64,000 bases of DNA from a phage. The notes under the pieces were generated by a model that did no database searches, was not told where the DNA came from, and was given only the letters and a program-made list of their open reading frames with translations. A program made the position numbers and the translations under genes. The stretch lies in NCBI GenBank assembly GCA_037431425.1, contig GCA_037431425.1_4129.1; one strand, 5' to 3'. Positions 36,748 through 37,565 of the stretch are shown here, in pieces; position 1 is the first letter of the stretch, and every line of letters starts with the position of its first letter.

Positions 36748-36775
36748 TTGACTAAATAGTTCAGTGCTGTATAAT
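36748..36775 (+). promoter_or_regulatory. sigma70-type promoter (TTGACT-16-TATAAT), repeat copy A
   Basis: TTGACTAAATAGTTCAGTGCTGTATAAT; near-identical to copies at 37157 and 37537. Confidence 0.7.
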
Positions 36776-36806
36776 GTTTGTATCTTAACTTATATGGCAA
36801 CTTGAT

Positions 36807-37160
36807 ATGTTTAATGAATATGAAGAAGCAATAAAACGCAACCTTGAAGATTATAAATTCCAATTTTATATTTGGGATGAACTGATGAGATTGTGTTTAC
36901 AGTGGATGGAAAATGAAGAAACTCCTGACCAACGAATTGTTATATTAAACATCTTGTTACATAAAGATCTTAGTTCAATTAATATTGAAGTTTCTACTTA
37001 TGTAGGAGAAGATTATAATCCCTATATTTCATATACTTCCCCTGTACCAAAGACAGAAGAAGAATATTTTCAAATGAGTACTGTACAAGAACCATTGTTC
37101 ACTTATGAGTTCTATAAGTACTTGATTGGTGAATTCAAAAAAATGCGAATTAATTCTTGA
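36807..37160 (+). CDS. CtFQ-family small protein
   Basis: 117 aa; motif EEEYFQMSTVQEPL. Confidence 0.6.
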   Translation: MFNEYEEAIKRNLEDYKFQFYIWDELMRLCLQWMENEETPDQRIVILNILLHKDLSSINIEVSTYVGEDYNPYISYTSPVPKTEEEYFQMSTVQEPLFTYEFYKYLIGEFKKMRINS

Positions 37161-37184
37161 CTAAATAGTTCAGTACTGTATAAT
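37157..37184 (+). promoter_or_regulatory. sigma70-type promoter (TTGACT-16-TATAAT), repeat copy B
   Basis: TTGACTAAATAGTTCAGTACTGTATAAT. Confidence 0.7.
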
Positions 37185-37216
37185 GTTTGTATCTTAACAA
37201 CAGAAGGTATATTGAA

Positions 37217-37456
37217 ATGGGTAAGTATTTTGTGAGTTATAGTTATAATGTATCACGAAAGATTCCACGCGGTGACGGAATGGGATGGTCTTATGATGCA
37301 TATACTTTAAATGAGTCATGTATCATCGAATTACAAGAAAAAGACCTTGACATTTTAAAAATCAAACAATATATTCTTGATGTTGAATTGGCACATCGTA
37401 CTGATACCTATCCAGATGTAAACAACATCAGCATCTTAGTACTAACCAAAGTATAA
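37217..37456 (+). CDS. hypothetical protein
   Basis: ATG 37217 after AGAAGG RBS; track start 37187. Confidence 0.5.
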   Translation: MGKYFVSYSYNVSRKIPRGDGMGWSYDAYTLNESCIIELQEKDLDILKIKQYILDVELAHRTDTYPDVNNISILVLTKV

Positions 37457-37536
37457 GATAAAAAGAACTTTACTAAATAATTCCACTGGAGATTAATATG
37501 TTTAAAGATGAACGTCCAGATTTGTAAAAAAAGTAC

Positions 37537-37565
37537 TTGACTAAATAGTTCAGTACTGATATAAT
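37537..37565 (+). promoter_or_regulatory. sigma70-type promoter (TTGACT-17-TATAAT), repeat copy C
   Basis: TTGACTAAATAGTTCAGTACTGATATAAT; followed by about 360 nt without convincing ORF. Confidence 0.7.

Follow-up and report, generated by a model that had tools for sequence, protein, structure and literature searches.

Paralogous predicted early promoters at cassette junctions and two putative structured RNA genes in the tRNA region of an Asteriusvirus jumbo coliphage

The tRNA region of an Asteriusvirus (121Q/PBECO4/BF17-like) jumbo coliphage carries repeated copies of one promoter-like sequence, and the third of these copies stands ahead of two conserved RNAs, here referred to as RNA-A and RNA-B. 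The 64,000-nt stretch of DNA that was analyzed (the window) has at least five paralogous copies of what would be one strong early promoter for the host RNA polymerase (sigma-70). The explanation that we consider well favored as a whole combines these promoter paralogs with a role as recombination joints between small gene cassettes and with two RNA genes behind the third copy (P3). By themselves the promoters are ordinary, and the larger return comes from the pair of unannotated RNAs.

Candidate promoter copies of the tRNA region

The original prediction described a promoter element recurring at three sites, and a 22-nt pattern, TTGACTAAATAGTTCAGTRCTG, is indeed found exactly at 36748, 37157 and 37537, each time on the + strand. 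The same pattern occurred in none of 100 dinucleotide-preserving shuffles, even with three mismatches allowed. Three copies proved too few as a limit of the family, since further copies are present at 38296 and 54043, together with a decayed one at 37469 whose version in phage 121Q is in a better state (TTGACTAAATAATTCAGTACTG). When the cassettes were aligned as had been proposed, P1 and P2 agreed at 45 of 47 positions (96%; 36743-36789 against 37152-37198), an identity that runs from the upstream flank through the spacer and on into 14 nt of the transcribed leader. The nearly identical leaders expected for two of the copies are those of P1 and P2, which both carry GTTTGTATCTTAAC; the sequence downstream of P3 differs. 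The P3 spacer has one A more than those of P1 and P2, giving a TGn extended -10, and between P3 and P4 the identity is 78% across 50 nt. The positions of all features are collected in Table 1.

Table 1. Promoter copies, genes and putative RNAs of the tRNA region, with the distant fifth promoter copy (positions in the window).
Feature	Position	Strand	Description
A-tract 5' of P1	36731-36742	+	
Promoter copy P1	36743..36789	+	-35 TTGACT 36748-36753; 16-nt spacer with CAGTGCTG; -10 TATAAT 36770-36775; leader GTTTGTATCTTAAC
gene117	36807..37160	+	117-aa protein, phrog_34619; TGA stop inside P2 -35 hexamer
Promoter copy P2	37152..37198	+	-35 37157-37162; 16-nt spacer; -10 37179-37184
gene79	37217..37456	+	79-aa ORFan; GAAGG ribosome-binding site 5'
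Decayed promoter copy	37469-37497	+	TTTACTAAATAATTCCACTGGAGATTAAT (TTTACTAAATAATTCCACTGG...); followed by 9-codon mini-ORF MFKDERPDL, 37498-37527
Promoter copy P3	37521..37570	+	-35 37537-37542; 17-nt spacer; TG-extended -10 37560-37565
RNA-A	37567-37755	+	putative structured non-coding RNA; predicted helices H1-H7, with PK1-PK3 as long-range pairings
RNA-A PK1	37571-37574 with 37641-37644		
RNA-A PK2	37725-37728 with 37752-37755		
RNA-A PK3	37699-37702 with 37713-37716		
RNA-B	37771-37911	+	putative RNA, ~140 nt; 5' long hairpin 37775-37826; GAAA-loop mini-hairpin; branched terminator
RNA-B terminator	37854-37860 with 37897-37903 (closing stem)		U7 37905-37911
gene125	37928..38305	+	125-aa protein, phrog_38341; stop codon inside P4 spacer
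Promoter copy P4	38280..38329	+	TGGACAGTAGTATTCAGTACTGATATAAT 38296-38324; -35 TGGACA 38296-38301; 17-nt spacer with CAGTACTG; TG-extended -10 38319-38324
tRNA-Ser(gct)	38330..38418	+	directly behind P4
Fifth paralog	54043..54079	+	TTGACATAAGATATCAGTACTGTATAATGTTTATATC; outside tRNA region; ~95 nt 5' of 102-aa ORF at 54164

In their hexamers, spacing, upstream A-tract, strand and place ahead of genes, the elements look like real sigma-70 promoters. P1, P2, P3 and P4 each match the sigma-70 hexamers at 11 of 12 positions and the copy at 54043 at all 12, with spacers of 16, 16, 17 and 17 nt in P1 to P4. All copies lie on the + strand, and the distance from the -10 to gene117, gene79, RNA-A and tRNA-Ser is approximately 0 to 32 nt. 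The layout of the family would be an A-rich UP-like tract, a -35 TTGACT, a 16- or 17-nt spacer with the palindrome CAGTACTG, and a -10 TATAAT. Near-consensus promoters in general (at least 11 of 12 consensus positions) number 32 on the + strand of the window against one on the - strand, compared with 2.75 +/- 1.5 in Markov-1 simulations. A spacer with CAGTACTG is common to only five of them, the spacers of the other 27 being unrelated. P-like copies were also observed ahead of the tRNA genes of phage RaK2.

The activity of the P-family copies and their early timing are predictions from these features. RpoD-like promoters with UP-like elements have been reported in the early regions of CBB, a RaK2-like relative (PMC5259590). 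The early promoters of T4/T5 and CBB (PMC5259590) resemble the copies described here in their near-consensus hexamers, 16-17-nt spacing, A-rich upstream tract, dense arrangement on one strand before many small genes of unknown function and tRNAs and, probably, reliance on the host RNA polymerase. However, the subfamily in the window has its whole spacer (CAGTACTG), and sometimes its leader, in common, which marks its members as recent paralogs; in addition, its copies mark cassette junctions between related genomes, and one of them (P4) is so placed that its predicted start falls on the initial base of a tRNA. Literature searches on CAGTACTG and on Asteriusvirus or Alcyoneusvirus transcriptomes returned nothing relevant.

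Each copy would head a short transcription unit, consisting of gene117, gene79, RNA-A with RNA-B, and the tRNA-Ser/Met/Asn group, respectively. The earlier view that two copies drive small protein genes holds for the arrangement, P1 lying directly ahead of gene117 and P2 of gene79; the driving itself is as yet a prediction of promoter activity. When the cassette proteins were compared with Pfam and PHROG, only families of unknown function matched. The units are tightly packed, with the stop codons of upstream genes inside the next promoter, and a single terminator was found from P1 to P4, behind RNA-B. The acceptor stem of tRNA-Ser begins at 38331, 7 nt past the P4 -10, which places the predicted start of transcription right at the 5' end of the mature tRNA.

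The conservation of the palindrome raises the question of whether the repeats are primarily binding sites of a phage DNA-binding protein for CAGTACTG or AGTACT, such as a repressor of early promoters, with the hexamers secondary. In all five copies the spacer is best conserved at CAGTACTG, although sigma-70 spacers can normally vary freely. P3 and P4 also have a second AGTACT exactly 20 bp upstream that touches the -35 (at 37532 in P3). Over-representation in the window is 4-6-fold for AGTACT and 12-50-fold for CAGTACTG; it extends to all three reading frames and is confined to the Asterius/Alcyoneus clade. However, 26 of the 31 copies of CAGTACTG lie within ORFs without a nearby promoter, so that the motif is not promoter-specific; P1 has CAGTGCTG in its place, and the hexamers, spacing, strand and location ahead of genes fit promoters fully. 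Binding would also be compatible with promoter function, as an operator could sit inside a promoter. We therefore regard a primary role in protein binding as rather unlikely and treat the repeats as candidate promoters.

Cassette junctions in related genomes

Duplication of promoter-gene cassettes and promoter capture had been proposed from the window alone, and comparison with relatives shows that cassettes do turn over: of all the Asterius relatives, BF17 and ph0011 alone carry gene79, a distribution by which it is a sporadic accessory cassette. Every insertion or deletion of related phages in this stretch has its break within the promoter repeat. The window, 121Q, G17 and JNE01 have the 3' end of gene117 and the promoter in common and then split at the -10, with four different downstream units past the shared promoter in these four genomes. 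In JNE01 the promoter is followed by RNA-B alone, and in G17 by a fusion of gene125 with the initial 39 nt of RNA-A. The promoter copy of EJP2, whose -35 region is divergent, is followed by RNA-A and then directly by tRNA-Ser.

A promoter of approximately 30-50 bp that recurs every 400-800 bp would provide homology for unequal recombination, and such recombination at the promoters could insert, delete or re-fuse cassettes. Differences between relatives that amount to entire cassettes joined at the -10 would be accounted for in this way, and we infer that the promoter repeats act as recombination joints by which cassettes are shuffled. Moron-like cassettes and recombination at repeated regulatory sequences are an established concept of phage genome mosaicism. 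The units described here fit this concept as small accessory genes with their own promoter that come and go among close relatives and have their junctions at short conserved sequences. They depart from it in that there are no terminators around each cassette, the phage is lytic and not temperate, and the repeated sequence is the promoter itself. The promoter repeats may serve as a clean sequence-level case of a jumbo phage shuffling small early-gene, tRNA and RNA cassettes.

The copies could in principle be alike merely through convergence of strong phage promoters on the consensus, with no duplication or cassette shuffling, and the 32 near-consensus promoters on one strand do point to strong selection for consensus hexamers. 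However, the agreement of P1 with P2 extends beyond the hexamers into spacer, upstream flank and leader, and the indel junctions of relatives fall on the repeat. Paralogy of the copies, as opposed to convergent matches to the consensus, is supported because spacer, flanks and leader are common to them while the other 27 promoters of the window have unrelated spacers. Convergence alone is very improbable as a source of the likeness.

RNA-A, its fold and its distribution

Behind P3, the original prediction had noted a region of about 360 nt with no convincing ORF, and no conserved ORF emerged on comparison with homologs. The accompanying picture of a promoter without a convincing gene did not hold, as P3 heads two conserved structured RNA genes that end in a terminator. 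RNA-A and RNA-B would be two separable, modular genes. ARAGORN and the Rfam tRNA model detected no tRNA or tmRNA in 37566-37920. The thermodynamic fold of the 350-nt stretch was not better than that of shuffles (z = -1.28), pseudoknots making such folding uninformative.

Covariation supports RNA-A as a probable structured non-coding RNA with helices and long-range pairings. In model-fitted alignments representing only about 6-7 independent lineages, paired cells amounted to 95.5%, against 23-39% in slid controls, and 19 pairs were changed on both sides against 1-7 in the controls (19-24 over both model versions); with PK2 and PK3 added, 92.6% of cells were paired against 26-39%, with a covariation score of 0.361 against at most 0.089, and the RNA-A covariation score was reached by none of 500 shuffles. 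PK1, PK2 and PK3 are kept in 17 of 17 sequences, in 3, 5 and 4 different sequence combinations, respectively; PK1 joins CCAC to GUGG and PK2 joins GUCC to GGAC. PK3 and H6 compete for the same four bases, each with covariation from a single lineage. The resulting fold would be compact, approximately 190 nt long and tied at both ends to internal hairpin loops, with an intricacy on a par with that of a riboswitch or small ribozyme.

Two candidate features of RNA-A were discarded. A simple CUAG-loop-CUAG hairpin gave way to H5 together with PK3 or H6 once Aeromonas phage 65, avDM6 and L027 had shown covariation, and a function as a CsrA sponge through multiple GGA motifs was dropped, the GGA motifs not being kept in the Aeromonas and L012 homologs. 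The start predicted from the P3 -10 (~37572) falls within the CCAC strand of PK1 (37571-37574). Either transcription starts 1-2 nt further upstream, or the RNA is produced by read-through and processing, or PK1 is incomplete here.

RNA-A always accompanies tRNA genes, on the tRNA strand and within phage tRNA clusters. In PM2, Pm5461, Mm5, SdyM_006 and Proteus phage 1, gaps between tRNAs are filled exactly by unannotated DNA with 85-91% identity to RNA-A. The homologs of Asteriusvirus, Alcyoneusvirus, Bragavirus and Novosibvirus are 85-98% identical. The match in Aeromonas T4-like phages is weaker, comprising a 64-nt core at 81-85% identity and covariance-model matches; with these counted, the RNA is spread over six phage genera. 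Homologs scored 112-225 bits with the RNA-A covariance model. The tRNA-tRNA gaps are occupied in Bragavirus, Novosibvirus and the Aeromonas T4-like phages, and searches outside RNA-A found no similarity between these other phages and the window phage. Lying flush between two tRNAs in the other phage families, RNA-A would be released by the processing of tRNA ends; in the window phage it appears to have acquired its own promoter.

Rfam 15 returned only tRNAs, whether in 30000-45000 (E <= 1), in the whole window (gathering score) or in six homologous loci (E <= 0.1), and RNA-A was absent from all GenBank annotations examined. Across 185,579 genomes of bacteria and archaea, scanning for the pattern produced 27 loci, none of them confirmed by the covariance model, and blastn of 5,426 E. 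coli genomes gave no match. Only 4 of the 51 loci from a metagenome scan were real, all close to known sequences, and two IMG/VR scans contributed no more than one new lineage, L012, together with CC2. Neither ncRNA001 nor ncRNA002 of phage PA5oct, both defined by RNA-seq, matched as a homolog, even with filters off. RNA-A looks like an undescribed class of phage RNA, and our working guess is a stable protein-binding RNA linked to tRNA or translation biology.

The location of RNA-A also raises the possibility of a ribozyme that, by cleaving itself, trims the tRNA before it at the 3' end. In Bragavirus, Novosibvirus and Aeromonas phages RNA-A begins 0-3 nt past the 3' end of the preceding tRNA, the position that HDV-like theta ribozymes hold relative to viral tRNAs (PMC10879173), and its complex pseudoknotted fold has both termini paired internally. 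The theta ribozymes of gut phages are similarly structured, pseudoknotted RNAs directly 3' of viral tRNA genes (PMC10879173). However, the pairing topology of RNA-A differs from theirs: its 5' pairing is 4 bp from nucleotide 5 and not a 6-7-bp P1 helix from +1. At ~190 nt it is about twice their size and far above that of a minimal HDV-like ribozyme, and no Rfam ribozyme family matched, even at E <= 1. In Asteriusvirus, moreover, RNA-A stands behind a promoter and not a tRNA, and the conserved AAUU at the boundary could also fit an RNase E site. We consider a ribozyme distinctly improbable.

The T4 species 1/2 RNAs (rnaC and rnaD) are likewise small stable RNAs, encoded in tandem in or next to a tRNA cluster, where they abut tRNA genes of the same strand, and are presumably freed by tRNA-processing enzymes. 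Alignment of RNA-A with rnaC and rnaD showed no similarity, and the RNA-A model (R1) found no match in the T4 tRNA region (L011). T4 rnaC ends in a tRNA-like T-arm, which RNA-A lacks, and RNA-A is larger, with three long-range pairings and, in the window phage, its own promoter and terminator. To our knowledge, some 50 years have passed without a function being assigned to the T4 stable RNAs of the tRNA cluster. RNA-A may be viewed as a second, better-conserved family beside them, with enough sequence variation for structure modelling, and thereby as a tractable way into the function of stable RNAs in phage tRNA clusters.

GOLLD and ROOL typically occur in phage or prophage DNA near tRNA genes and are roughly 3-4 times the size of RNA-A. 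They resemble it as complex-folded RNAs of unknown function (PMC5737381; PMC12286853), and a cryo-EM study describes their structures as homo-oligomeric complexes (PMC12286853). They differ in having their own Rfam models, none of which matched here, and in belonging to other hosts and phages.

Phage tRNA clusters are now regarded as counter-defence loci (PMC11555353). We offer as a tentative possibility, to which we give less than even weight, that RNA-A is an undescribed, compact, triple-pseudoknotted class that spread horizontally among the tRNA clusters of unrelated lytic phages and has a specific role in tRNA biology, and that, separately, CAGTACTG is the operator of a clade-specific, genome-wide DNA-binding system. 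The carriers under this proposal are RaK2-like jumbo phages, T4-like Bragavirus, Ishigurovirus, Ceceduovirus and T5-like Novosibvirus. The roles it names are, for example, catalysing or directing the cleavage of tRNA precursors, or acting as a decoy that diverts a nuclease or defence system with which the host targets tRNAs.

RNA-B and the coding potential of the stretch

The terminator of RNA-B consists of a 7-bp closing stem (GGGUGGU/ACCAUCC) around two hairpins, followed by A and U7, and was overlooked by a simple terminator scanner because of this branched shape. Five covarying pairs were found among seven sequences of low diversity from two clades only, including pairs in the inner hairpins of the terminator. 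A T-box-like leader had been considered from the GGGUGGU and was rejected: Rfam gave no T-box match, and GGGUGGU is the 5' strand of the terminator stem.

That 37566-37920 encodes small proteins instead of RNAs, through ORFs of 27, 69 and 39 aa (37564-37647, 37641-37850 and 37798-37917) and in keeping with the 'hypothetical protein' that several related GenBank records carry in this stretch, is hardly credible, given that the 69-aa ORF bridges RNA-A and RNA-B, which stand apart in EJP2 and JNE01 and are separated in RaK2 by a promoter, that indels of 1, 5 and 6 nt distinguish the homologs of RNA-A, which have no conserved reading frame, that the element stops 5-12 nt short of the next tRNA in other phage families, and that the helix substitutions are compensatory. 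With the RNAs annotated, dozens of phage genomes would lose a spurious 'hypothetical protein'. In RaK2, RNA-B has its own promoter, and its terminator module occurs a second time behind a RaK2 tRNA-Ser.

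Five paralogous predicted promoters, four of them in the tRNA region

Region 36200-38400 is 92-96% identical to jumbo coliphages of the genus Asteriusvirus, with BF17, CMSTMSU, 121Q and PBECO4 as nearest relatives, and the promoter repeats lie within the tRNA region of these phages, where ARAGORN and Rfam place six tRNAs (36057-39892, all on the + strand). By crude gene calls, 117 of the 125 genes of the window are on the + strand. Directly 3' of tRNA-Arg, three tandem paralogous 54-aa genes (36249-36735; phrog_10970, a family without assigned function) are arrayed as direct repeats of 161 nt in which the stop codon of one gene overlaps the start of the next (ATGA).

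The element TTGACTAAATAGTTCAGTRCTG matched exactly at three positions in the window (promoter copies P1 to P3) and had no match in 100 shuffles with up to three mismatches permitted, bearing out the original prediction of three near-identical elements. Nearly identical leaders had been proposed for two of them, and P1 and P2 are indeed 96% identical over 47 nt, the transcribed leader GTTTGTATCTTAAC included; P3 has one additional A, which lengthens the spacer to 17 nt and makes the -10 TG-extended, and its downstream sequence differs. The family is larger than the three first counted, with two further copies (P4 and a fifth) and a decayed one. P4 ends 5 nt 5' of tRNA-Ser(gct), and the decayed copy retains TTGACT and CAGTACTG in its 121Q version.

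Promoter copies and RNA elements of the window
Feature	Position	Strand	Description
P1	36748		exact match to TTGACTAAATAGTTCAGTRCTG
P2	37157		exact match to TTGACTAAATAGTTCAGTRCTG
Decayed copy	37469-37497	+	nine-codon mini-ORF directly after
P3	37537		exact match to TTGACTAAATAGTTCAGTRCTG
P4	38296-38324	+	78% identity to P3 over 50 nt
Fifth copy	54043	+	common upstream flank, CAGTACTG spacer, GTTTATATC leader
RNA-A	37567-37755		non-coding RNA module
PK1 (RNA-A)			5' end with H3 loop: CCAC/GUGG, GCAC/GUGC, CUAC/GUAG
PK2 (RNA-A)			H7 loop with 3' tail: GUCC/GGAC, ACCC/GGGU, AUCC/GGAU, GCCC/GGGC, GUCC/GGAU
PK3 (RNA-A)			H5 loop with following junction: CUAG/CUAG, CAAG/CUUG, CAGG/CUUG
RNA-B	37771-37911		non-coding RNA module

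All copies match the consensus at 11 or 12 of 12 positions with a spacing of 16-17 nt, and an A-tract can be read upstream of each. Near-consensus sigma-70 sites in the window number 32 on the + strand (roughly one per 2 kb) and 1 on the - strand, against 2.75 +/- 1.5 expected from composition-matched simulations. The other 27 promoters have spacers unrelated to each other, and CAGTACTG and its flanks are common to these five only, so the likeness of the copies reflects common descent and not convergence on a shared consensus. Early genes appear to occupy the entire window, and its promoter layout is the same as that described for the related phage CBB, where RpoD-like promoters with UP-like elements precede many short ORFs in early regions (PMC5259590). 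A literature search found no transcriptome for this phage clade; the activity of the copies is predicted from sequence, and we infer that they are early promoters dependent on host RNA polymerase. Repeats of this kind are nothing unusual in a large lytic phage; of more interest is what they point to.

Cassette breakpoints at the repeated promoter

In alignments, the 3' end of gene117 (the gene between P1 and P2) and the promoter copy overlapping its stop codon are common to the window, 121Q, G17 and JNE01, and divergence begins at the -10 of this copy. Beyond it, the window continues with the leader and gene79, 121Q with the mini-ORF and then P3, G17 with the 5'-most 39 nt of RNA-A joined to a homolog of gene125 (the gene between RNA-B and P4), and JNE01 directly with RNA-B. 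EJP2 has a promoter copy whose -35 region is divergent, followed by RNA-A and then immediately by tRNA-Ser. Gene79 is confined to BF17 and ph0011; other jumbo phages carry relatives at 44% identity. The divergence at the -10, the distribution of gene79 and the EJP2 arrangement together place the cassette breakpoints at the repeated promoter, in agreement with the earlier proposal that promoter-gene cassettes had been duplicated. Unequal homologous recombination between copies would be the simplest cause, and such recombination could move cassettes.

The stop codon of gene117 (37158-37160) lies within the -35 of P2 and that of gene125 (38303-38305) within the P4 spacer, so that protein C-termini and promoter sequence constrain one another. 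The last base of the P4 -10 is 38324 and the tRNA-Ser(gct) acceptor stem begins at 38331 (window 38319-38331), and thus the predicted transcription start is the first base of the mature tRNA. From this start, the tRNA would be leaderless and need no RNase P cut. In the Klebsiella phage RaK2 (L007), P-like copies precede three annotated tRNA genes (3620, 3847 and 3997) with the -10 about 11 to 70 nt upstream, and a fourth stands about 7 nt ahead of a tRNA that is not annotated (4202-4276).

Two conserved structured RNA modules and their terminator

The 360 nt after P3 had been described as a region with no convincing ORF. There is indeed no conserved reading frame, as indels of 1, 5 and 6 nt distinguish the RNA-A homologs, but the stretch carries two conserved structured RNA modules, RNA-A and RNA-B, with a terminator at the end. 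Overall, the original prediction is confirmed as an observation and partly supported in its interpretation. By blastn, conservation of the full stretch is 96-98% among Asteriusviruses, slightly above the 92-96% of the whole region, and identity is about 80% in Klebsiella RaK2-like phages (Alcyoneusvirus). Unannotated DNA of T4-like phages of Proteus, Morganella and Shigella (Bragavirus) and of T5-like Proteus phages (Novosibvirus) matches the 5' 187 nt at 85-91% identity, a 64-nt core of RNA-A matches Aeromonas phage 65 and relatives, and the 3' 140 nt are restricted to Asteriusvirus and Alcyoneusvirus. The two halves are separable, since EJP2 carries RNA-A alone, JNE01 RNA-B alone, and RaK2 a separate promoter (TTGAAC, 17 nt, TGATATAAT) between them.

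In every Bragavirus, Novosibvirus and Aeromonas-phage genome matched, RNA-A is on the tRNA strand and fills a tRNA-tRNA gap (between tRNA-Gly and tRNA-Asp in PM2, Pm5461 and SdyM_006, between tRNA-Leu and tRNA-Ser in Proteus phage 1, directly after tRNA-Pro in the Aeromonas phages), and its ends are sharp limits of similarity. No copy was found in 5,426 E. coli genomes, and none was confirmed among pattern hits from 185,579 prokaryotic genomes.

A hand-curated covariance model of RNA-A with seven helices (H1-H7) recovered all homologs at 112-225 bits, with no other matches in 0.56 Mb of fetched loci. Across 16 sequences, in alignments fitted to the model and with only six or seven independent lineages behind the covariation, 95.5% of cells paired (23-39% with slid partners) and 19 pairs had changed on both sides (1-7 in slid controls), values reached by 0 of 500 shuffles. 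Three long-range pairings (PK1-PK3) were read from the alignment and are kept in 17 of 17 sequences; adding PK2 and PK3 to the pairs scored gives 92.6% of cells paired and a covariation score of 0.361, compared with at most 0.089 in slid controls. Helix H6 competes with PK3 and covaries in the same lineage, and a transcript begun at the start that P3 predicts (about 37572) would be missing part of PK1.

In the consensus fold of RNA-B, a hairpin of 52 nt and a mini-hairpin with a GAAA loop precede a branched stem (GGGUGGU with ACCAUCC) that has U7 after it; five pairs covary in seven sequences. Its terminator part recurs 3' of a RaK2 tRNA-Ser, and a similar module can be read 5' of RaK2 RNA-A. 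The first hairpin has a weak counterpart within an 800-nt non-coding gap of kuraviruses. In Escherichia phage vB-EcoP-XT18 (Kuravirus; L098 1013-1803), about 790 unannotated nt downstream of tRNA-Arg hold many G+C-rich hairpins and a segment resembling this hairpin, with no Rfam match in the gap. It may be a further unannotated phage RNA, and part could be coding (an ATG with GAGG ahead at about 1023).

RNA-A among known RNAs, and minor observations

Rfam 15 scans returned tRNAs only. T4 rnaC/rnaD occupy the same kind of position as RNA-A and have no similarity to it, GOLLD and ROOL are far larger and their models gave no match, and the non-coding RNAs that RNA-seq defined in PA5oct are unrelated. 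HDV-like theta ribozymes lie just downstream of phage tRNAs (PMC10879173), a similar position, but RNA-A differs from them in topology and size; no ribozyme model matched it, and we consider a ribozyme improbable. From these comparisons, RNA-A appears to be a family not described before, belonging broadly to the stable RNAs that phage tRNA operons carry. In such operons, tRNA-end processing would free RNA-A, and an RNase E site would fit the AAUU conserved at its 5' edge. In Asteriusvirus, RNA-A may instead have acquired a promoter of its own and a terminator that it shares. We tentatively favor a role for RNA-A and RNA-B as stable protein-binding RNAs tied to tRNA or translation.

The RaK2 record lacks annotation for three tRNA genes (L007 1804-1888, 2258-2330 and 4202-4276), and about 170 ORF-less nt (2331-2499) with a terminator-like module at the end separate a tRNA from RNA-A. 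ORF-less spacers also run from RNA-A to the next tRNA beside its most divergent homologs (L012 325-520, a 120-kb IMG/VR contig; L010 1585-1667, Aeromonas phage avDM6), and these might contain additional small RNAs.

GCGC is absent from the window (46 expected) and from every fetched Asteriusvirus and Alcyoneusvirus locus; with CCGG, GGCC, GATC and CTAG also underrepresented, the pattern appears to reflect avoidance of restriction sites. AGTACT, a palindrome, is present 127 times (21.5 expected; e.g., 37172, 37532, 37552, 38291, 38311) and CAGTACTG 31 times (0.6 expected). Within ORFs, AGTACT was counted 114 times, in all three frames, against 30.7 +/- 5.4 under synonymous-codon shuffling. The palindrome excess was not found in T4, Bragavirus, Novosibvirus, Aeromonas-phage or Kuravirus loci; it recurs in Asteriusvirus and Alcyoneusvirus loci (L001, L002, L007, L014, L022), and the excess points to DNA-level selection with a clade-specific purpose.
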